From: an uncultured Candidatus Saccharibacteria bacterium
GTDB taxonomy: Bacteria; Patescibacteriota; UBA1384; CAYJQE01
DNA length: 60,578 nucleotides
NCBI GenBank assembly: GCA_964372245.1
Contig: CAYJQE010000003.1
Coordinates: 1 to 60,578 of the forward strand
Reading direction: 5' to 3'
Positions within the stretch are counted from its first letter, which is position 1. Every line of letters starts with the position of its first letter. The position numbers were made by a program, and so were the translations under genes. Of the stretch, positions 38,898 through 52,983 are shown in pieces. The notes beneath the pieces were generated by a model that ran no database searches, was not told the DNA's origin, and saw only the letters and a program-made list of their open reading frames with translations.

Positions 38898-39497
38898 CTA
38901 GACAAACTTTCGAATTACTCCCTTGACTCGACCTTGGATCGTAACTCGCCGAGTTCTGATGGGCGGATATTTTTTATTCGCGGCTTGAAGGCGAATTGTC
39001 TTTTTTTCTCGGTAAAAACGTTTGAGGGTCGCGGTGTCTTGGTCGATGAGAGCGACCACAATGTCGCCATTTTTTGGCTCGGCGATCTGATCTACGATGA
39101 TATAATCGCCTTCAAAGATGCCGTCTTCGATCATTGAGTCGCCCCTGACTCGAAGAGCAAAAGTGTTCGGACCAATCATGTCGCGAGGGATTTCGATCGT
39201 ATCGTTAGTCCTAATGGCTTCGATTGGCTCGCCGGCCTGAATTGTGCCTTCAAGGGGGACTTCGAAATGACGCTCATCCCAAGCTGGAGTCAACTGAAGC
39301 GACCGAGCAAGGTTTTCGACCTTAATGAGATAGCCCTTTTTCCTCAAGGCCTCAACATAAGCGGCGACCGTCGCGACCGACGAAAGTTTAAATTGGCGAG
39401 CAATCTCGCGAAAACTCGGGCTGTAATCATGCTCGAGAATATATCGCTTGATGAATTCAAAAACGGCTTTTTGTTTTGGGGTGAGTGTGGTTGCCAT
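38898..39497 (-). CDS. lexA: SOS repressor LexA
   Basis: LTPKQ...PSFREIA wHTH; IQAGEP cleavage site; GDSM (Ser) and TLKRF (Lys) catalytic dyad. Confidence 0.96.
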   Translation of the reverse strand: MATTLTPKQKAVFEFIKRYILEHDYSPSFREIARQFKLSSVATVAAYVEALRKKGYLIKVENLARSLQLTPAWDERHFEVPLEGTIQAGEPIEAIRTNDTIEIPRDMIGPNTFALRVRGDSMIEDGIFEGDYIIVDQIAEPKNGDIVVALIDQDTATLKRFYREKKTIRLQAANKKYPPIRTRRVTIQGRVKGVIRKFV

Positions 39498-39531
39498 GCT
39501 CCTTTAGTTATCGCCCGTCTCTTTTAGATTC

Positions 39532-39546
39532 GAACAAAGAGCGAAC
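39532..39546. promoter_or_regulatory. Candidate LexA operator GAAC-N7-GAAC at the lexA promoter
   Basis: GAACAAAGAGCGAAC lies just downstream of a minus-strand TTGACA (39554-39549). Confidence 0.55.
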
Positions 39547-39624
39547 GGTGTCAAGTCGGCGGTAAAGGCCCTGGCCGCTTGGGTTAAAATTGGTCAAAGA
39601 AAAACTTAAAATCATTATCCTCTT

Positions 39625-41022
39625 TCAGAGAGATCGGTCTTTTAGCCTCTTGTCCCGACCGTCCGGAATCGGCTCCAAGATTCCCTTTGCCAGCAGACTG
39701 CCGGCAAAAACAACCGACCACGAGCCAAAACGGCCGGATATTTGATCAAGCGCCTCGGTTAATCTTTCCTGTCGCCGTTCCGATCCGAAGAGCGAAAGAG
39801 AGATCTGATCTTCCCCGAAAAGATCGGTTGCCGAAAGACCGATTCGACGGATCGGCAAAAATCGAAAATCGGCCGGCGCTTCAAGAATTATATTTCTGGC
39901 AACTTCATAGATTTGACGGCCTTGATTAATCGGTCTCGCGATTCGTCTGTTTCGACCAAAACTTCGACCGTCATCAAGCCAGAGAAAACTCCAAATTCTT
40001 TGACCAAAAAGTCTCTTTCTTCTCATCCGTCGCCCGACCTGATCCGAAAGTCGGAACAGGACGGCTTGAGCCGACCGCCAGTCAGAGCAATTTCTAGGCA
40101 GGCTGTAAGAGTGCCCAAAAGATCTCTCGACTGAAAGATCGCCAAAAGTCGCGATTGGAAGATGGTCTTCGCCCTGACCCATCTGCCAGAGAGCGATGCC
40201 TCGATGATGACCGAATTCGGAGATCAGGACCGCTCGTTCAATATGAGCAAGGTCTTCCGGCCGATAGATGCCAAGACCGTTTAACCGTCGAAGAACCTGA
40301 CGACCGATGCCGCAAAAATCGGCCAGTTCAACCTCCGCGAAGAGTTGATCTTTTGTCACAAATCGGGCTGACCGAACGGTTCTTTTTGACCGCGGAACAG
40401 GCCCTCGGGTCTCCCTGTCAATCACGACCGTCAGACCGTCGGGCTTCTTTGATTCCGAAGCAAGCTTGGCCATAAATTTGTTGTCGGCAAAGCCAATCGA
40501 GGCGGTGACACAGTCGCCAATTTCCCGCCTGATATTCCGCTTGATCGAAAGAGCGGTCTCTATCATACTTTCAAGGCTAATTGCTTTGAGAGTCTCAAAA
40601 TCGAAAGCGAGACCGTCGCGATCATTTTTCTCACCCTTAAGTTCCTGACTCCCGATTTGGTCGCCAAGCCTTCGAACTTCGAAAAACGCTTCGTCAATCG
40701 AGAATGGCTCGATCCTGGCCGAGTAGCGATCGAGAATCTCAAGGAATCTTCTGTTGATCTCGAGATAACGCTCGTAGTCGGCTGGAATAAGAATCAGCTC
40801 CGGACAAAATTGTCTAGCCTCAAAAACACTCATGCCCGACTTGACACCGCGCTTTTTCGCCTCGATCGAAGCAGCGACGACAACCGTTCTCTGTCGAGTG
40901 ACATTCTTGCCAGAAACGCCGATCGGACGGCCGCGGAGATGAGGATTGGCCTGCTGCTCAAGCGTGGCGAAATAGGAGTTCATATCAATATGAGCGATGG
41001 TTCTGGCAGGAAAAAACCTCAT
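39625..41022 (-). CDS. dinB: Y-family DNA polymerase (DinB/UmuC-like)
   Basis: HIDMNSYFA, VVAASIEAK..GV..GM, SIDEAF, KFMAKLAS..KKPDG, GIG; C-terminal little-finger domain. Confidence 0.92.
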   Translation of the reverse strand: MRFFPARTIAHIDMNSYFATLEQQANPHLRGRPIGVSGKNVTRQRTVVVAASIEAKKRGVKSGMSVFEARQFCPELILIPADYERYLEINRRFLEILDRYSARIEPFSIDEAFFEVRRLGDQIGSQELKGEKNDRDGLAFDFETLKAISLESMIETALSIKRNIRREIGDCVTASIGFADNKFMAKLASESKKPDGLTVVIDRETRGPVPRSKRTVRSARFVTKDQLFAEVELADFCGIGRQVLRRLNGLGIYRPEDLAHIERAVLISEFGHHRGIALWQMGQGEDHLPIATFGDLSVERSFGHSYSLPRNCSDWRSAQAVLFRLSDQVGRRMRRKRLFGQRIWSFLWLDDGRSFGRNRRIARPINQGRQIYEVARNIILEAPADFRFLPIRRIGLSATDLFGEDQISLSLFGSERRQERLTEALDQISGRFGSWSVVFAGSLLAKGILEPIPDGRDKRLKDRSL

Positions 41023-41158
41023 GGTTAATCAAAAAAACTTTCGACGGAAGAAACGAAAAGTCTTCGACTTGAGAGAAAAATCTTCCCGCGAAAACAGGTC
41101 TCGGTTGAACGACTTGACATCTGATTTTTTTCGTCGCTCGGGCTCTTTAGGTTTTGAT

Positions 41159-44754: not shown

Positions 44755-45612
44755 TTAATCAAGCTCGCTCTGAACCCGACCCTCAAGGGTTCGAAGTTCT
44801 TTGAGAGCCTTTTGGGCTTCCACGGCTGTCGGCGGCTTGCCATGCCACCGGAAGTCCCGCTCCATAAATGGCACTCCTTTACCGGGAATGGTATGGCAGA
44901 TAATGGCGACCGGTTTCTCGTAAACCGCTTGAGCTTCGTGGCAGCCGTCAATGATCTCCTCAATGTTGTGACCGTCAATCTCTAAAACGTGCCAACCAAA
45001 GGCCTGATATTTTTCGTCAAGCGGCTCGAGCGGCATAATGTCCTCGGTAAAACCGTCAATCTGGATGTTGTTCCGGTCAATCAAAACCGTTAAGTTGTTC
45101 AGACGATATTTCGCCGCCATCAGGATAGCCTCCCAAGTTTGGCCTTCGTCGTGCTCGCCATCGGAAAGAATGGCATAAACCCGCCAAGGGGCCTGATCGA
45201 GCTTGGCGGCTAAAGCCATGCCGATCGCTTGGGACAAGCCTTGACCGAGCGGGCCAGACGAGTTCTCGACTCCCGGGGTGACAAGATTGTGAGGATGGCC
45301 GTGAAGCCGACCGCCGAACTTTCTCAAAGTCGTCAGAAATTCGGCGACCGGAAAATAGCCGGCGTGAGCCAAGGTGGCATAAAAAACCGGATTGATGTGA
45401 CCGCAGGAGAGCACCAGACGATCACGCTCGGGCTTATCGGGCCGTTTTGGATCGTAGTCCAGGATCCCTCCAAAATAGAGAGCGGTAAAAACATCGGCCA
45501 TGCCAAGGGGACCGGCGCTATGACCAGAGCCGGCTTTGACAAGGGCCCTAATAATATCTTGGCGAATCGCGTTGGCGATCTTTTTAAGATCTTGCAGATT
45601 TCTAGTTTTCAT
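44755..45612 (-). CDS. Transketolase, N-terminal subunit
   Basis: GSGHSAG, DRLVLSCGH, LHGHP, GPLGQG, SDGEHDEGQTWEA, DRNNIQIDG. Confidence 0.95.
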   Translation of the reverse strand: MKTRNLQDLKKIANAIRQDIIRALVKAGSGHSAGPLGMADVFTALYFGGILDYDPKRPDKPERDRLVLSCGHINPVFYATLAHAGYFPVAEFLTTLRKFGGRLHGHPHNLVTPGVENSSGPLGQGLSQAIGMALAAKLDQAPWRVYAILSDGEHDEGQTWEAILMAAKYRLNNLTVLIDRNNIQIDGFTEDIMPLEPLDEKYQAFGWHVLEIDGHNIEEIIDGCHEAQAVYEKPVAIICHTIPGKGVPFMERDFRWHGKPPTAVEAQKALKELRTLEGRVQSELD

Positions 45613-46627
45613 CGTTTAGCTTCTTGCCCAGAACAACCACCTGATCGATCAGGCGGTTGGCATAGCCCCATTCGTTGTCATACCAAGAAACGACCTTGAC
45701 CAGATCTTGATCAACAACTCGGGTCAAAGAGAGATCAACGATCGCCGAGTGGCTGTCGCCGATAATGTCCGAGGAGACTAGCGGTTGACTGGTAACGGCC
45801 AAAATGCCTTCAAAGCCCGGATCTTTGCTGGCCTGAATAAAGGCCCGATTGACAGCCTCAAGGCTCGTTTTCCGAGCAACCAAGGCCGTAATGTCCGAGA
45901 TCGAACCGAGAGGGACAGGGACCCGGATCGCCAAGCCGTCAAACTTGCCTTTAAGTTCTTTGATTACCTCGGTCGTCGCCTCGGCCGCTCCGGTCGATGT
46001 CGGAACGATGTTTTCAGCCGCCGAGCGAGCTCTTCTCAAATCGCGATGAGGACCGTCCTGGAGATTTTGATCGGCCGTGTAAGCGTGAACAGTTGTCATC
46101 ATCGCCTTCCTTAAGCCAAAATTCCTTTCCAAAACGGAGATGACCGGCGTGATCGAATTGGTGGTGCAGGAAGCATTGCTGATTACCGGCTCGCGGCCGG
46201 TAAGCGAGTCGTGGTTCAGTCCGATTATCGTCACCGGCGGCCGATTTTCGCCCTCCGATGGAGCGGAAATTATGACCCGTTTGGCCCCGGCCGAAAGATG
46301 CTTCGAAGAAAGCTCGGCGGTCGTAAACCGACCGGTTGATTCGATGACAACATCAATTGAGCTCTCTCGCCACGGCAGTTCCTCGGGCTGGCCGATCGAA
46401 AAAACTTTGACCTTTCTGCCCTCGACAATCAGGTGTTCCTGATCATAGCTGGCCGACTTATTGTAACGACCGTAAGCGGTGTCATAGTTCAAAAGATGGC
46501 AGAGAGTCGGAGCGTCGGAAAGATCGTTAACCGCGACAACCTCAACCTCCGGCCGTTCAAGAGCAATCTTAAAAGCCGCGCGGCCAATCCGGCCAAAACC
46601 ATTAATCGCCAATCTGATGATTTTCAT
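45602..46627 (-). CDS. gap: Glyceraldehyde-3-phosphate dehydrogenase (type I)
   Basis: INGFGRIG, SNASCTTN, WYDNEWGY; ATG 46627 follows a GAAGGAGG SD. Confidence 0.98.
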   Translation of the reverse strand: MKIIRLAINGFGRIGRAAFKIALERPEVEVVAVNDLSDAPTLCHLLNYDTAYGRYNKSASYDQEHLIVEGRKVKVFSIGQPEELPWRESSIDVVIESTGRFTTAELSSKHLSAGAKRVIISAPSEGENRPPVTIIGLNHDSLTGREPVISNASCTTNSITPVISVLERNFGLRKAMMTTVHAYTADQNLQDGPHRDLRRARSAAENIVPTSTGAAEATTEVIKELKGKFDGLAIRVPVPLGSISDITALVARKTSLEAVNRAFIQASKDPGFEGILAVTSQPLVSSDIIGDSHSAIVDLSLTRVVDQDLVKVVSWYDNEWGYANRLIDQVVVLGKKLNDEN

Positions 46628-46679
46628 CCCTCCTTCTTTCTCTCTTTTCCGGCCCGAGCTTCTTTGGCCAAAACAGCTT

Positions 46680-47357
46680 CTATTCGATGATCTCTGAAAC
46701 CTCTGTCTTAACCGAGCCGGAAGGCAGCTTGGCAAGAGTTTCGACTATCTCCTGATAAGCCCCTTTCGGATCGCCGGCCTGAAAAATCGCCGAGCCGATA
46801 ACGATCTGGTCGGCCCCCATTTCGGCCGCCACTTTAGCCCGTTTTGAATTCATTCCCCCATCAACGGCAATTTTACCGCGAAATCCCAGATTCCGCAATT
46901 GAGCGATTTTTTTCATACTCGTCTCTAAAAAATCGCCGCCGTAAAAACCTGGCTCGACGGTCATAATCAAAACGGCCGGCAGTCCCAAAACAAAATCGGC
47001 GATCGAATCAATCGTGGTTTCCGGCTTAAGAGCCAGACCGACTTTCCCGGGAAAACTCGATCCGATCTTAACCAGCGCGCGCCTTCCGGCCAAGGCTTCA
47101 TTATGAATAAAGACTAGCCGCCAGTTTTCAAGATGCCTAAGATACCGCTCCGGCTCCTCGACCATGAGATGGGCGACGAATGAAAACGGCCAATCTTGAG
47201 AACCCAAATCATAAGGCAAAATGGTCTTATTTTTGGCAAACCGGCCATCAACAAAATCAACGTGAACCTTTTTGGCAAAAGTCTTTAAAAGCGACAACTT
47301 TTCGATATACTCGGACAGATTCTTGGCTAAAACGGCTGGTAGAACCTCAGGTCTCAT
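46680..47357 (-). CDS. rpe: Ribulose-phosphate 3-epimerase
   Basis: HVDFVDGRF, HLMVEEP, MTVEPGFYG, VDGG, GSAIF. Confidence 0.92.
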   Translation of the reverse strand: MRPEVLPAVLAKNLSEYIEKLSLLKTFAKKVHVDFVDGRFAKNKTILPYDLGSQDWPFSFVAHLMVEEPERYLRHLENWRLVFIHNEALAGRRALVKIGSSFPGKVGLALKPETTIDSIADFVLGLPAVLIMTVEPGFYGGDFLETSMKKIAQLRNLGFRGKIAVDGGMNSKRAKVAAEMGADQIVIGSAIFQAGDPKGAYQEIVETLAKLPSGSVKTEVSEIIE

Positions 47358-47367
47358 CAAAAAAAAC

Positions 47368-47814
47368 CTAGCATCTTGCCTCGAGATCTTTGATCTGATT
47401 AAGCCGCCGGCGGCGACGGGCTAGAGCCTGAAACTCGGTCTTCAGAAAAACCTTTAGGATAGACTCGGCCTTTCTGGGAGAGATAAAATCGCCAGCCAAG
47501 CATAAAAGATTGGCGTCGTCGTCATTTCTCGCCCGCCTGGCCGATTTTCGGTCCCAGGCTTGAGCCGCTCTGATCCCTTTAATCTTGTTAGCCGCGATGC
47601 AGGCGCCTTGACCGGAGCGACAGATGATAAGGCCAAGCGAGCCCCGATCGGCAAGAAGCCGATTTGAAATCATCTCGGCGATAAGAGGGTAATCGGACGG
47701 GCGATCGTCGGCGGCTCCGAGATCAACGACTTCTCGCGTCTCGGTTTTGAGACGTTTTAAGAGCTGTTTTTTGAGCCGGTAACCACCATGATCGTTGGCG
47801 ATATAAAGGGTCAT
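47368..47814 (-). CDS. rpiB: Ribose-5-phosphate isomerase B
   Basis: DHGGYRLK, DYP, ICRSGQG..IAANK..GIRAA, ARNDDDAN. Confidence 0.92.
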   Translation of the reverse strand: MTLYIANDHGGYRLKKQLLKRLKTETREVVDLGAADDRPSDYPLIAEMISNRLLADRGSLGLIICRSGQGACIAANKIKGIRAAQAWDRKSARRARNDDDANLLCLAGDFISPRKAESILKVFLKTEFQALARRRRRLNQIKDLEARC

Positions 47815-49013
47815 GCCGCCGCGGGGCCGAAGAGTTGGTCTTTCAGAAAACCAATAATCTCTTCTTGAAGGAGAGTCTCTTGCGCTCCGCTCTCAAGATT
47901 CCTGATCATCGCCTGACCTTCAATCGCTTCCTTGTGGCCGATGATGATAGCGAAACGAGATCTTGATTTTTGAGCGGCCAGAAGTTGGTCTTTAAGGGGC
48001 GAGCGATCGGGCAAAAATGGCGCCATGATGCCGTTGCTCCAAAGATCGGCCAGGATTTTCAGGGAAGCCAGTCGCGCCTCTCTCCCGATTTGGGCGACAA
48101 AAACCGGCACCGGCTTGAGAGTTTGGCGACTCTTTTTATCAACCGACTTCCGCCAGACAAAGCCGGCAACTGACTCGGACTTGCCGATCAGATCGGGAAA
48201 AGACTCAAATGAACCGCCAAACGCGATCTCTTCGTCTTTCTCGTCAGTCAGTCGAAAATTGATCCGGCCTCGAAAAAGATCCGGCAGGTGAAGACGAGGC
48301 TCAAGCTCGAAAGGGACTCGCATCAACTCAAGCTGCTCAAAGACCAGCTCCAAGTGGCCTTTACATTCAAGACAAAGACGATCGAGAATTGTTTCCTGCG
48401 CGTCAATCAGTCGCCGACAGATCGGGTTATGACAATCATAAATTTCAAACGAGCCGGGCGGGGTGGAAAGACTTAACCTGCAACGAGAACACAACTCGCC
48501 ACTTTGCGATTTAAGCGCTTGCCTGAGAACTTTGAAGAAAACCGGCCGGCAATTCTGACAGCCAGCGGTTCCGATAACGGAGGTTTTGGCCGATTGACCA
48601 AGAAACTTTTTAAGCTGGTCAACCAGAAAAACCAGACCGGTGTCGGTTTCAGGACCAAGATTGCCTCTTAAGAGCACGCCGAACTGCTCTTCGGCCGCGA
48701 GGGACGATCCCTGACTCGCCCTATCCGGAGAAGCGGAAAAAAAGTGATCGGCAAAGTAATAAAGTTCGCTCGAGGTCAAGAGATCCCGACCAATGTGAGG
48801 CAAGAGACTGATCAAACCGTTGAAACGGAAAAGGGTTGACTGATCGGAGTGCGCGAGCAGCACCGGTTTTCGGGTCAGATTATCGGCCGAGTCGAGAATT
48901 GATTCAATCGCCCGCGAGCGCCGTTCGATCAAGGGCAATTCGACCTCCTTGAAGGCAAAAGTCCGAGCGAAAGACCTGACCGATTCGAAAAATGACAAGT
49001 CTTTTCCGCGCAT
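47811..49013 (-). CDS. Degenerate histidyl-tRNA synthetase paralog (catalytic motifs lost; Cys-rich insertion and anticodon domain kept)
   Basis: HisRS fold order and size; LRPE, motif-2 FRYERPQ, RGLDYY, GGRYD and GxGxER not recognisable; four Cys pairs and the LKDQL..A......AIIIG..E anticodon domain present. Confidence 0.7.
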   Translation of the reverse strand: MRGKDLSFFESVRSFARTFAFKEVELPLIERRSRAIESILDSADNLTRKPVLLAHSDQSTLFRFNGLISLLPHIGRDLLTSSELYYFADHFFSASPDRASQGSSLAAEEQFGVLLRGNLGPETDTGLVFLVDQLKKFLGQSAKTSVIGTAGCQNCRPVFFKVLRQALKSQSGELCSRCRLSLSTPPGSFEIYDCHNPICRRLIDAQETILDRLCLECKGHLELVFEQLELMRVPFELEPRLHLPDLFRGRINFRLTDEKDEEIAFGGSFESFPDLIGKSESVAGFVWRKSVDKKSRQTLKPVPVFVAQIGREARLASLKILADLWSNGIMAPFLPDRSPLKDQLLAAQKSRSRFAIIIGHKEAIEGQAMIRNLESGAQETLLQEEIIGFLKDQLFGPAAA

Positions 49014-49015
49014 CG

Positions 49016-51598
49016 TCAACCAATTTCCATTGCTTTAGGACTCATGGTCTTTCCGATCATCCGACGACGATGAACCGGCTTAATCGTCGTTTTGTCGTTC
49101 AGAAAATCGATTTTTAGTTCATCGCCGACTTGAAACTCTCCGGCATAGAAACCCTCGGTAATTGGATCCTCGATTAGATCTGCGATCACCCTTCTGACCG
49201 GCCGAGCGCCAAACTCCTGACTAAACCCAAGTCGAGAGACCCGATCGAGCATCTTACTTGAAACATCAACCGAGAGACCGAGGGTTTCTAGTCGGGCCCT
49301 CAACTCTTCAATCTGAATCCGAGCGATACTCCTTATCTGCTGACGATTGAGAGGCTGGAAAACGATTGTGCCATCAAGACGATTGAGAAACTCCGGTCGG
49401 AAATAATCTCTAAGTTCTCTTTCAAGACTGGCCTTGGCTCGGCTGAAGAGGTTGTCAGCCCGATCCCGCTCCGAGCGACTCTCGGCCTCGAAACCGATCC
49501 TTAAACTCCGGTTAAAGGCCTGAAGTCCGATGTTGCTGGTCATGACAAGGAGAGTGTTCTTAAAATCAACCTTTCGACCCTTGGCATCGGTCAGATTGCC
49601 GTCTTCCATTATCTGAAGCAAAACATTAAAAACTTCTGGGTGGGCCTTCTCTATTTCATCCAAAAGAATGATCGAGTAGGGCCGTCGTCTGATCTCTTCA
49701 GTCAGACGACCGCCTTCTTCATAACCGATATAACCGGCCGGGGCACCAAGGAGCCGGCTGAGATTGTGACGTTCCATAAACTCGCTCATATCAATCTTGA
49801 TCATGGTTTGAGATGAACCAAACAACTCATCGGCCAAAACTCTAACCAGCTCGGTCTTGCCAACGCCGGTCGGCCCGAGAAAGATGAAAGAGCCGATCGG
49901 CCGATTCGGATTTGACAGCTTGAGACGAGCTTTTCGGATAACCTTGGCCATCTTCTTGATTGCTTCATCCTGACCAACAATTCTCTTTTTAATTCTAGTC
50001 TCCAGATCTCTTAGTCGGACCAGTTCTTCTTGGGCCAGGTTCGAGAGAGGAATCTTTGTCCAGCGACTAACCACCGCGGCCACATCGCCGGCGGTTACCC
50101 GACTTCTCTCGACCTGCTCGCCGGCCAACCGCTCGATGGCCAACTTCTCACGGAGCAAAGTCTCCCGTTTTTTGAGCTCGATTATCAGCTCGTACCGTCG
50201 CTCGTTGACCGCTTGAGCCTTGGCCAATTCAGTTGTTTTTAACAATTTTTTGAGACGGGAAAGCTCCGTTTTCTCGTTTTGACGAAGAGAAACCGAGGCC
50301 GCCGCTTCATCAATGGCGTCGAACGCCTTATCGGGCAAAAAACGGTCAGAGATATACCGGTCGGTCAATAAGACGCTTTTGGAGATGGCCTCATCGGTAA
50401 TCACGACCTTGTGGAATTCCTCGAAATACTGCTTGGTGCCGTTCAAGATCTCGATTGATTCGTCGGCCGACGGCTCATCAATCACGACCGGTTGAAACCG
50501 TCTCTCAAGCGCCTTATCTCGTTCAAGATATTTTTGAAACTCATCAAAGGTCGTCGCTCCGATCACCCGAAAGTCGCCCCTCGAAAGCGAGGGCTTTAAG
50601 ATATTGGCCAGATCGAGGGTGCCTTCGGCGGAGCCGGCGCCGATCATGGTATGAAGTTCATCAATGAAGAGAATGATATTGCCTTGACTCGCAACCTCGG
50701 AGAGGAGTTTTTTGATCCGCTCCTCAAACTGGCCGCGATACATCGTGCCCGAGATCAGAGCGGTTACATCGAGCATTAAAATCCGCTGTTGTTTCAGGTT
50801 CTTTGGAACCAGGTTGGCGCTAATTTTTGAGGCCAGCCCCTCGACCAAAGCCGTTTTACCGACACCTGGCTCGCCGAGTAGAATCGGGTTGTTTTTCGTT
50901 CTCCGAGCCAGAATGTGAACGACTCTCTCCATCTCGAGCTCCCGACCGATCAAAGGATCAAGCTTGCCTTCAGAGGCAAGTTTCGTCAGGTCAATGGTGA
51001 AGGCTTTCTCGGCTTGACCAAACGACTGACCTCTTTTCGGCAAATTGGTCTTCTCGGGCTCCAAAAAAGGCTTTTGAGGCGGACCTTCTAGTTCACTCAA
51101 GCGCTGAAAGATTTGGTCAATCTGACTTCTGATTGATTCCGGGCTGACTCCGAGCTGCTCGAGCAGATGATAGCCGATCGAAACTTGATGAGAGACTATG
51201 CCGTAGAGCAAATGTTCGGCTTCGATCGCGAAGTGGCCGAAAATGCTGGCCCGGGTGACGGCCTTTTCAATCACCTCTTTGGCTTCATCTTCTATTGAGG
51301 AGCCGAGGTCAAACTTCACTCCCTGTTCTTGTGTCTGATCGAGATCTGGCTCTTTTTCCTTTCGACCTCGAAGATCGAATCGGAGCGAGCGCGAAAGCCG
51401 GAGTTTCTCGGCGTCGAGCGAGAAGCTTCTCAAAATCTCGGCCGCCAAAGTCCCTCTCTGACTGATCATCGCCTGGAGAAGATGATCGGAACCCAAGGGC
51501 AAGTTGTGCGATTCGGCCGACTGTTGAGCGACAATCAAGACATCCCTCGCGGTCTTTCCAAACTTCGAAAATATGTGCTCAAAACTCCCGGCCATCAT
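49016..51598 (-). CDS. clpC: ATP-dependent Clp protease ATP-binding subunit (ClpC-like)
   Basis: Two Clp-N repeats; GEPGVGKT/LFIDE; GPTGVGKT/LLDEIEKAH; GAPAGYIGY; FGARP. Confidence 0.93.
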   Translation of the reverse strand: MMAGSFEHIFSKFGKTARDVLIVAQQSAESHNLPLGSDHLLQAMISQRGTLAAEILRSFSLDAEKLRLSRSLRFDLRGRKEKEPDLDQTQEQGVKFDLGSSIEDEAKEVIEKAVTRASIFGHFAIEAEHLLYGIVSHQVSIGYHLLEQLGVSPESIRSQIDQIFQRLSELEGPPQKPFLEPEKTNLPKRGQSFGQAEKAFTIDLTKLASEGKLDPLIGRELEMERVVHILARRTKNNPILLGEPGVGKTALVEGLASKISANLVPKNLKQQRILMLDVTALISGTMYRGQFEERIKKLLSEVASQGNIILFIDELHTMIGAGSAEGTLDLANILKPSLSRGDFRVIGATTFDEFQKYLERDKALERRFQPVVIDEPSADESIEILNGTKQYFEEFHKVVITDEAISKSVLLTDRYISDRFLPDKAFDAIDEAAASVSLRQNEKTELSRLKKLLKTTELAKAQAVNERRYELIIELKKRETLLREKLAIERLAGEQVERSRVTAGDVAAVVSRWTKIPLSNLAQEELVRLRDLETRIKKRIVGQDEAIKKMAKVIRKARLKLSNPNRPIGSFIFLGPTGVGKTELVRVLADELFGSSQTMIKIDMSEFMERHNLSRLLGAPAGYIGYEEGGRLTEEIRRRPYSIILLDEIEKAHPEVFNVLLQIMEDGNLTDAKGRKVDFKNTLLVMTSNIGLQAFNRSLRIGFEAESRSERDRADNLFSRAKASLERELRDYFRPEFLNRLDGTIVFQPLNRQQIRSIARIQIEELRARLETLGLSVDVSSKMLDRVSRLGFSQEFGARPVRRVIADLIEDPITEGFYAGEFQVGDELKIDFLNDKTTIKPVHRRRMIGKTMSPKAMEIG

Positions 51599-51684: not shown

Positions 51685-52983
51685 TCAAGGCTTTTGATCC
51701 GATCCTTGATGATCAGCCTCGACCCGACTTTCAATCCCCTCCGACTTCTGACTCATAAAAAGATTGACCGCCCCGAGAATTTTTCCCGCCATCTTAATGC
51801 CGATGCCCGGAATCGCCGTCAAATCCTCGGCCGATTTGACAGCGACATCGCCAACCGTTTTAAATCCGGCCTGTTCCATTTTTTTAATCGTCGCCTTGGT
51901 CAGCCCGAGTTTCATTAAATCGTCAGCCCTCGCTTCGGTCTTGCGGCCCTCTAACTCTTTGTTGATGTCAATCATATAACCGCTGATCTTTGAAGCTAAG
52001 CGGACATTCTGACCGGCCTTGCCGATCGCCAACGAGAGTTGATCTTCCGGCACTCGAACCATCGCCCGGAGGCTCTTTTCGTCAAGCTCGATCTCTTCGA
52101 TCCGAGCCGGCGAAAGAGCGTTTTGAATAAATTGTTTGGGATCTTCGTCATAAGCGACGATATCAATTTTCTCATTGCCAATCTCCGCCAGAACGGCCTG
52201 AACCCGAGTCCCCCGCTGACCAACGAGCGAACCGACCGGATCGAGCGAGTCGTCGTTGGTCTTGACGGCGATTTTCGTCCGGGCGCCGGCCTCTCTCGTC
52301 GAACGGACAATTTCAACCTGACCGGTTTCGATTTCCGGCACCTCGTTTTTGAACAGCTCTTCAATGAAGGCCGGATCAGACCGGTTGAGAATAATCTGCG
52401 GACCTCGGGTTGATTCCTGAACCTCTTTAACCAAAACCCTCAATCGCTGGCCAATGTAGTAATGTTCGCCCCGAATTTGACCCGAGGAGGGCATAATCCC
52501 CGCGGTTCGACCAACCGAGACAAAGACATTCCCTCGATCAATCTGTTGAACCGTGCCGTTGACGATGACGCCAACTTTTGATTTAAACTCTTCATAAACC
52601 AACGAATTCTCGGCCTCGCGCAGTCGCTGAATAATCACTTGCTTGGCGGTTTGAGCCGCTATCCGACCAAATTCAGACTCCGGCTTTTGAGCGACCTCCA
52701 ACTCATCGCCAAGTTCGGAATCGGCCTTGATCTCTTTCGCTTCTTCTAGGGTCTTCTCGGCGTGACGGTTTTCGACCTCTTCGACAACGGTATAGACTTC
52801 CCAAACTCTTGCCTCACCGGTTTTCGGATCAAACTCGGCCCGGATCACCTGTTCCGGGTGACCATAATCTCGACGATAAGCGGCCGCGATCGCAACATTG
52901 ATGGCATCGAAGATCACCTTTTTCGAGAGCCCTCTTTCTTCGGCCAATTGCTCGAGAGCGATTTTAAACTGATCGTAATCCAT
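51685..52983 (-). CDS. nusA: Transcription termination/antitermination factor NusA
   Basis: FGRIAAQTAKQVI, S1 domain, REAGARTKIAV, VGQRGTRV, AIGKAGQNVRLAS, C-terminal HhH. Confidence 0.98.
   Translation of the reverse strand: MDYDQFKIALEQLAEERGLSKKVIFDAINVAIAAAYRRDYGHPEQVIRAEFDPKTGEARVWEVYTVVEEVENRHAEKTLEEAKEIKADSELGDELEVAQKPESEFGRIAAQTAKQVIIQRLREAENSLVYEEFKSKVGVIVNGTVQQIDRGNVFVSVGRTAGIMPSSGQIRGEHYYIGQRLRVLVKEVQESTRGPQIILNRSDPAFIEELFKNEVPEIETGQVEIVRSTREAGARTKIAVKTNDDSLDPVGSLVGQRGTRVQAVLAEIGNEKIDIVAYDEDPKQFIQNALSPARIEEIELDEKSLRAMVRVPEDQLSLAIGKAGQNVRLASKISGYMIDINKELEGRKTEARADDLMKLGLTKATIKKMEQAGFKTVGDVAVKSAEDLTAIPGIGIKMAGKILGAVNLFMSQKSEGIESRVEADHQGSDQKP

Follow-up and report, generated by a model that had tools for sequence, protein, structure and literature searches.

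Proteins derived from aminoacyl-tRNA synthetases that have taken on new roles, such as HisZ, GCN2, PoxA and YadB, have each brought unexpected biology. HisZ, the regulatory subunit of ATP phosphoribosyltransferase, descends from histidyl-tRNA synthetase (HisRS), does not aminoacylate, lacks the anticodon-binding domain and partners HisG; in a 2022 review of duplications among the synthetases it is the only HisRS-derived paralog listed, with no duplicate of HisRS (PMC9437257). The trypanosomatid TyrRS pseudo-dimer and SLIMP are cases in which a synthetase scaffold outlives catalysis, a non-canonical role being presumed (PMC9437257). The HisRS-like domain of the eukaryotic kinase GCN2 (structure 9c9q) mimics the catalytic and anticodon-binding domains without the adenylate-forming elements, is thought to be a tRNA-binding sensor, and is described as having an anticodon domain without decoding side chains (PMC11363354). 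Here we report on a gene coding for a HisRS-like protein that has lost its catalytic motifs, located at positions 47811..49013 (minus strand) of a 60,578-nucleotide stretch of DNA (contig CAYJQE010000003.1 of assembly GCA_964372245.1, hereafter the window) from an uncultured Candidatus Saccharibacteria bacterium. No description of such a dead HisRS form that keeps the anticodon domain was found in the open literature searched.

The protein shares with bacterial HisS (1qe0, 4e51, 1htt, 4rdx) its fold and its domain order, namely a class II core, a helical insertion and an HGTP anticodon domain. With the canonical hisS of related genomes it shares its genomic position, four pairs of cysteines and, likely, the residues that contact the anticodon. 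Unlike bacterial HisS, it has the RPE, motif 2, HisA and HisB elements replaced, it scores far below the family cut-off, and its genome also encodes an intact HisRS of a different type. Like HisZ, it is HisRS-derived and predicted from its sequence not to aminoacylate, but it keeps the anticodon domain in a genome devoid of HisG and is therefore not a HisZ. Its likeness to the GCN2 domain, that of a HisRS mimic without adenylate-forming elements, is one of possible mode and not of membership, as the window protein is bacterial and stands alone (400 amino acids, with no kinase domain in a Pfam scan), whereas the GCN2 domain is fused to a kinase and a pseudokinase. Since the anticodon-decoding side chains appear to be kept, specificity for tRNA-His, and not for uncharged tRNAs generally, is predicted. 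The TyrRS pseudo-dimer and SLIMP belong to another synthetase family and lineage.

Displacement of the original hisS and loss of its catalytic motifs

The window gene is the original bacterial-type hisS of its lineage, displaced by a HisRS of another type. As to its present state, we lean with modest confidence towards a non-catalytic, anticodon-specific tRNA-His binder that would act as a dimer. The assembly (677 kb, 98% complete) carries a canonical hisS on another contig (G000:C7:9721-10929), which reaches 360.6 bits against the TIGR00442 hisS equivalog model, above the curated cut-off of 286.75. Motif 2, ARGFDYY, GGRYD and motif 3 are intact in this second gene, which has no Cys-rich insertion. 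Its closest relatives in the PDB are 6nhi, 3net and the HisRS of human and Thermoplasma, which places it in the eukaryote/archaeal-like group (type 2). No match to HisG (PF01634) was found in the 98% complete genome, while the control genomes all matched. An earlier reading made from the sequence alone had supposed both that a canonical hisS would lie elsewhere and that hisG would be missing, and on both counts it was right. The genome has one tRNA-His(GUG), with a normal encoded G-1 and C73, and an unusual tRNA-His was for this reason rejected as an explanation.

Alignment of the window protein with 20 canonical relatives revealed the replacement of most catalytic elements. In the N-terminal half of the class II core (residues 1-145; 48579..49013, minus strand), LRPExT is replaced by FRFNGL and the motif-2 core FRxERPQxGRxRQF by FFSASP...SSLAAEE, while the Pro and Glu of motif 1, the dimer-interface signature, are retained (ELPLIE). 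In the C-terminal half of the core (residues 239-300; 48114..48299, minus strand), HisA VRGLDYY has become HLPDLFR and HisB GGRYD has become GGSFE, with the GG of HisB persisting, and the motif-3 region is shortened. The sequence-only reading had listed the loss of the motif-2 Arg, RGLDYY, GGRYD and the motif-3 Arg. The first three are indeed gone, but the loss of the last is not certain from the alignment, as R288 (in VWRK) coincides with the motif-3 Arg column in one alignment and is its neighbour in another. Identity to canonical relatives is 0.21 in the N-terminal half, against 0.48 among the canonical copies, and 0.21 against 0.52 in the C-terminal half, the most diverged domain of the protein.

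The profile searches agree with this picture. Against TIGR00442 the window protein scores 77.4 bits, below the cut-off. In a Pfam scan the anticodon domain was recognised (PF03129, E 1.5e-9) and PF12745 matched weakly, but PF13393, the family of the HisRS core, was not listed. At E <=0.01 the only NCBIfam models matched were hisS, thrS and PRK12420, with no HisZ model among them. Judged as a histidine--tRNA ligase, the window protein has the three-domain fold and neither the equivalog score nor the catalytic residues; on these last two counts it is not a HisRS.

Retained domains and predicted reading of the anticodon

The anticodon-binding domain (residues 301-400; 47814..48113, minus strand; PF03129) is the best-conserved part of the protein, with an identity of 0.32 to canonical relatives against 0.41 among the canonical copies. 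In the complex of Thermus HisRS with tRNA-His, E386-E388 bind G34, K397 binds G36 and Q404 binds U35, with E388, K397 and Q404 hydrogen-bonding to G34, G36 and U35, respectively; the motif-2 residues R115 and R122 hold the acceptor end and G-1, and the insertion domain clamps the stem (PMC4357726). E362, R371 and Q378 of the window protein (codons within 47880-47930) correspond to Thermus E388, K397 and Q404 by an offset of +26 obtained from phmmer end points to 1adj, and their 9- and 7-residue spacing is the same as in the alignment with the E. coli protein. These three residues are likely anticodon-contacting positions, as judged from offset and spacing.

The helical insertion domain (residues 146-238; 48300..48578, minus strand) carries four pairs of cysteines, all of them kept, with codons between 48363 and 48560: C152/C155 (CQNC), C175/C178 (CSRC), C194/C199 (CHNPIC) and C214/C217 (CLEC). 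Every pair stands at or beside the start of a helix in the AlphaFold2 model, and this eight-Cys domain is probably a metal-binding one; a search of the open literature for zinc or cysteines in the insertion domain of HisRS gave nothing relevant. Across an alignment of 50 degenerate sequences, C155, C175, C194, C217, G266, G359, E362 and Q378 never vary, and C152, C178, C199 and R371 are conserved in at least 90%.

The full-length AlphaFold2 model, built from an alignment of 121 sequences, is confident (predicted local distance difference test, pLDDT, 89.5; predicted template modelling score, pTM, 0.89). The top Foldseek matches of the model are the bacterial HisRS 4e51, 4rdx and 1adj (E 1e-27 to 1e-28), with the GCN2 structures 9c9q and 9c9r also among its structural matches, and the best PDB matches of the window protein by sequence are the bacterial HisRS 1qe0, 4e51 and 1htt. 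The full-length HisRS architecture, the CQNC, CSRC, CHNPIC and CLEC motifs and the anticodon domain reported by the sequence-only reading were thus all recovered. That reading had treated the Cys-rich insertion as a peculiarity retained by this protein, which it is not, the insertion being the normal state of canonical HisRS in the group.

Gene order, distribution and selection among relatives

In the majority of 40 genomes of the class, the only hisS is bacterial-type and codes for about 435 aa, with all catalytic motifs and the four Cys pairs of the window protein, and this canonical gene sits in a nusA-clpC-(relA/spoT)-hisS-lexA order. By its place in the same gene order the window gene is the positional ortholog of that ancestral hisS, and its linkage with clpC is inherited synteny. 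An ordinary synthetase thus already had, as ancestral traits, both the clpC linkage and the Cys-rich insertion. The description of the gene as a dead HisRS paralog coupled to clpC is thus correct as to a catalytically degenerate, full-length HisRS-like protein, but the gene is a displaced original and its coupling was inherited. Degenerate copies of four other genomes (G011, G021, G039 and G068) lie next to or near clpC, downstream of it; a further one (G028) stands behind nusA and a relA/spoT-like open reading frame, without clpC. Conservation of the linkage, to which the sequence-only reading had pointed, is therefore only partial, and canonical hisS is linked in the same way.

In the window, the minus strand reads nusA, a clpC-like gene, the HisRS-like gene, rpiB, rpe, gap and the transketolase N-subunit gene. 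The HisRS-like frame (400 codons and a stop) runs from an ATG at 49013 to a stop codon at 47813-47811, and the TGA of the clpC-like gene at 49018-49016 leaves a gap of 2 nt before this ATG, exactly as the sequence-only reading had it; with a TTG at 49019 as the alternative start, the gene would overlap the stop of clpC (TTGA). The clpC-like gene (49016..51598, minus strand), directly upstream and an ancestral neighbour of hisS in the class, codes for a double AAA+ ATPase with Clp_N repeats, as found by a Pfam scan. At the head of the conserved nusA-clpC-hisS order stands nusA (51685..52983, minus strand). Downstream, rpiB (47368..47814, minus strand), the ATG of which overlaps the HisRS-like stop as ATGA, opens a pentose-phosphate block (rpiB, rpe, gap, tkt; 44755-47814) that sits between the HisRS-like gene and dinB-lexA (38901-41028). 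In relatives lexA lies close behind hisS, with no pentose-phosphate block at that position, and in family f25 clpC is followed by 2-3 kb without conserved open reading frames and then by dinB-lexA; the loci compared were L037-L044 and L090-L092.

Several further observations were made on the genes of this neighbourhood. A RelA/SpoT-type gene lies between clpC and hisS in several relatives (L043:4291-5787, with equivalents in L041, L042, L044 and L047), and the HD_4, RelA_SpoT and TGS domains of the L043 gene were confirmed; no match to RelA_SpoT (PF04607) was found anywhere in the genome of the window. ClpP-family matches in that genome are a strong one (G000:C5:582-1112; 276 bits) and a weak one (G000:C12:17895-18380; 55 bits). 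Second ClpB/ClpC-like matches in two other genomes (G024:C1:270840-271805 and G042:C1:508657-509676) each contain one in-frame stop (TAG and TAA, respectively), in frames of about 850 amino acids.

A class-wide survey, in which 142 genomes were scanned with TIGR00442 and follow-up searches were made, revealed three outcomes in genomes with a type-2 HisRS. In G034 and G094 both genes are intact, one type-1 and one type-2 by motif and tree, the bacterial-type copy lying at the clpC locus (contigs C9 and C4 of G034, C12 and C5 of G094). Two hisS matches above the cut-off were also found in each of G114 (C18, C7) and G123 (C1, two sites). These four genomes, of about 1 Mb, may represent a stage preceding the degeneration or loss of one copy. 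The bacterial-type copy is degenerate in the genome of the window (G000), in G011, in G028, in four genera of family f22 (G021, G039, G068 and G069) and in G328, which belongs to another class; an intact second hisS is present in every genome with a degenerate copy (8/8). Lastly, the bacterial-type copy was not found in families f25 and f31, each with a single hisS match above the cut-off. In f25 the window protein gave no match (G024, G040), and no bacterial-type remnant was detected downstream of clpC (best tblastn E 0.065). Marginal tblastn matches (E 0.07-1) of five canonical HisRS queries, aligned to the HisA region, fell on one and the same spot behind clpC in G042 (L091:7811-7933, minus strand); they lie on the strand opposite to clpC and are too weak to be called a remnant. 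The window gene shows four features of the group that we define here as the recurrent degenerate bacterial-type HisRS of the phylum: loss of the motifs, the Cys pairs, the E/R/Q triad and a second intact hisS.

The bacterial-type hisS of G007, a genome from the family of G028, is an open frame of 336 aa (G007:C46; L051:1276-2283) that lacks about 100 residues in frame, RPE and motif 2 among them, while RGLDYY, GGGRYD and motif 3 are fully preserved. A second hisS was not detected in that genome, which is 82% complete. The gap might reflect an inactivation of recent date, or an error of assembly.

Wider searches gave no close relative of the window protein. A word-indexed homolog search returned two distant matches only, and in a library of 1.84 billion representative proteins the closest non-self match was 34% identical. 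Among the best 150 library matches, about 45 of the 136 full-length representatives (>=380 aa) are strongly degenerate with the Cys pairs kept. Two such proteins bear the public names 'hypothetical protein' and 'histidyl-tRNA synthetase'; a degenerate protein may thus carry the synthetase label in genomes where the true synthetase is a different gene. A phylum search with a profile of degenerate sequences showed no enrichment, its top 30 loci comprising 29 canonical HisRS and one degenerate copy (G328).

The degenerate copies of the four f22 genera are under purifying selection. They are 44-55% identical, with non-synonymous differences (pN) of 0.30-0.38 and synonymous differences (pS) saturated at 0.77-0.83, and they are indistinguishable in this respect from the type-2 hisS (pN 0.30-0.36) and clpC (pN 0.30-0.31) of the same genomes. 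In the tree the f22 copies sit on a shared stem that is long (about 1.7-1.8 substitutions per site), and their terminal branches are of ordinary length, a pattern of a burst of change, then constraint. Relative to the canonical level, identity is 78-96% in the anticodon domain, 54-82% in the insertion and 29-66% in the core halves, in all seven degenerate copies of the class. On the origin of these copies, a first tree joins them (Shimodaira-Hasegawa-like approximate likelihood ratio test, SH-aLRT, 92), a grouping open to long-branch effects; adding G007 draws G028 away from the others (support 99), and the approximately unbiased (AU) test does not reject a single clade (p 0.70).

Competing explanations and meaning

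According to the explanation that we favour, a bacterial-type hisS at the ancestral nusA-clpC-hisS position was relieved when the eukaryote/archaeal-like HisRS took over the charging of tRNA-His. Freed from charging, the old gene shed the residues that bind histidine, ATP and the G-1/acceptor end. It kept four things, namely the class II fold with its motif-1 dimer signature, the eight-Cys insertion, the anticodon domain and three probable GUG-reading positions. As the anticodon readers and the motif-1 Pro/Glu are kept and the G-1/acceptor and catalytic residues are gone, a dimeric, stand-alone pseudo-synthetase is predicted, with non-catalytic, anticodon-specific binding of tRNA-His as its present activity. 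Such binding might serve to sense, sequester or hand over tRNA-His, or be part of a second HisRS job dependent on the Cys cluster.

Several points weigh against this interpretation. No terminal branch in the tree is longer than that of the window copy, which amounts to 2.7-3.4 substitutions per site where the median is about 0.5 and is about three times as long as that of the type-2 hisS of the same genome; the copy also lacks a close relative (best non-self identity 34%). The type-2 tree groups the genome of the window with f25 (SH-aLRT 94), the family lacking a detectable bacterial-type remnant, where whatever role the gene had must therefore be dispensable. Furthermore, the mapping onto the Thermus residues is drawn from offset and spacing and not from a residue-level alignment to 4rdx, and the loss of the motif-2 arginines, which grip G-1 and the acceptor end, may have lowered the affinity for tRNA considerably.

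The strongest alternative is a slowly decaying relic, one that we consider unlikely but by no means far-fetched: the open frame and the motifs would reflect incomplete decay together with selection against disrupting the clpC-to-rpiB operon. Besides the long branch and the lack of a close homolog, it draws on the complete loss of the gene in f25, the nearest family by type-2 hisS, and on the anticodon domain of the window copy, the weakest in conservation among the degenerate copies (0.78). Decay is harder to reconcile with a 400-codon frame that stays open despite more than 2.7 substitutions per site, and with the retention of all eight cysteines and of E362, R371 and Q378 around a core only 21% identical to canonical HisRS. 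By a rough estimate of our own, at 0.21 per site, chance retention of all 11 sites has a probability of about 1e-7. The fold is confidently predicted, and the divergence of the domains follows that of the f22 copies, which purifying selection maintains; the window copy may therefore still be selected as well. A role as a Clp-linked adaptor or sensor, in which the dead HisRS would work with ClpC, for instance by making proteolysis respond to the state of tRNA-His, strikes us as quite improbable. The start of the gene 2 nt past the clpC stop (or 4 nt of overlap), the clpC proximity kept in G011, G021, G039 and G068, and the presence of ClpP homologs and of a ClpC-like protein with Clp_N repeats are all consistent with it. 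Active canonical hisS, however, has the same order in many relatives, often with relA/spoT in between, so that the linkage predates the loss of catalysis and is independent of it, and the G028 copy dispenses with clpC altogether. The sequence-only reading had proposed a tRNA-binding sensor or adaptor, possibly linked to Clp proteolysis. The first half remains plausible, given three conserved positions that likely contact the anticodon, but nothing about the Clp link is specific to the dead copy.

Slighter still is the probability of a HisZ-like regulatory subunit or of an enzyme of new chemistry, with a remodelled class II pocket binding a new ligand or partner. HisZ offers a precedent for a HisRS relative that does not aminoacylate (PMC9437257), and the window protein still has the two glycines of HisB and, in R288, what may be the motif-3 Arg. 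Against a HisZ-like subunit stand the lack of HisG in the genome and of any HisZ model match at the NCBIfam threshold given above, together with the anticodon domain, absent from HisZ and here the best-conserved part. Against new chemistry or a new ligand, the motif-2 and HisA arginines required for ATP and adenylate chemistry are gone and the pocket columns vary among the degenerate copies. We give least credence, and very little of it, to a second HisRS isoform that is still active through an unusual active site. The full-length architecture and confident fold would suit such an isoform, and G034, G094, G114 and G123 do keep two intact HisRS. The window protein, however, reaches 77 bits against a cut-off of 287, and the Glu of RPE, the motif-2 arginines, the Arg and Tyr-Tyr of HisA and the Arg-Tyr of HisB are all replaced.

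The displaced hisS took a course different from that of HisZ: the catalytic pocket was discarded, while the anticodon reader and the Cys cluster were kept, in at least eight genomes and in dozens of metagenome protein clusters. We propose tentatively, as a generalisation in which we place less than even confidence, that small-genome bacteria of this phylum repeatedly keep a displaced, dead HisRS that reads the anticodon of tRNA-His for a function dependent on an eight-Cys metal cluster. If true, these proteins would form a class of bacterial pseudo-synthetase not yet described, comparable to the GCN2 sensor domain but free-standing and specific for tRNA-His, and they would hint at a second, non-charging job of bacterial HisRS. 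Should the binding of tRNA-His be real, they would offer a simple bacterial model for the conversion of a synthetase into a sensor or chaperone of tRNA. They would suggest, too, that bacterial HisRS uses its conserved cysteines for something other than charging.

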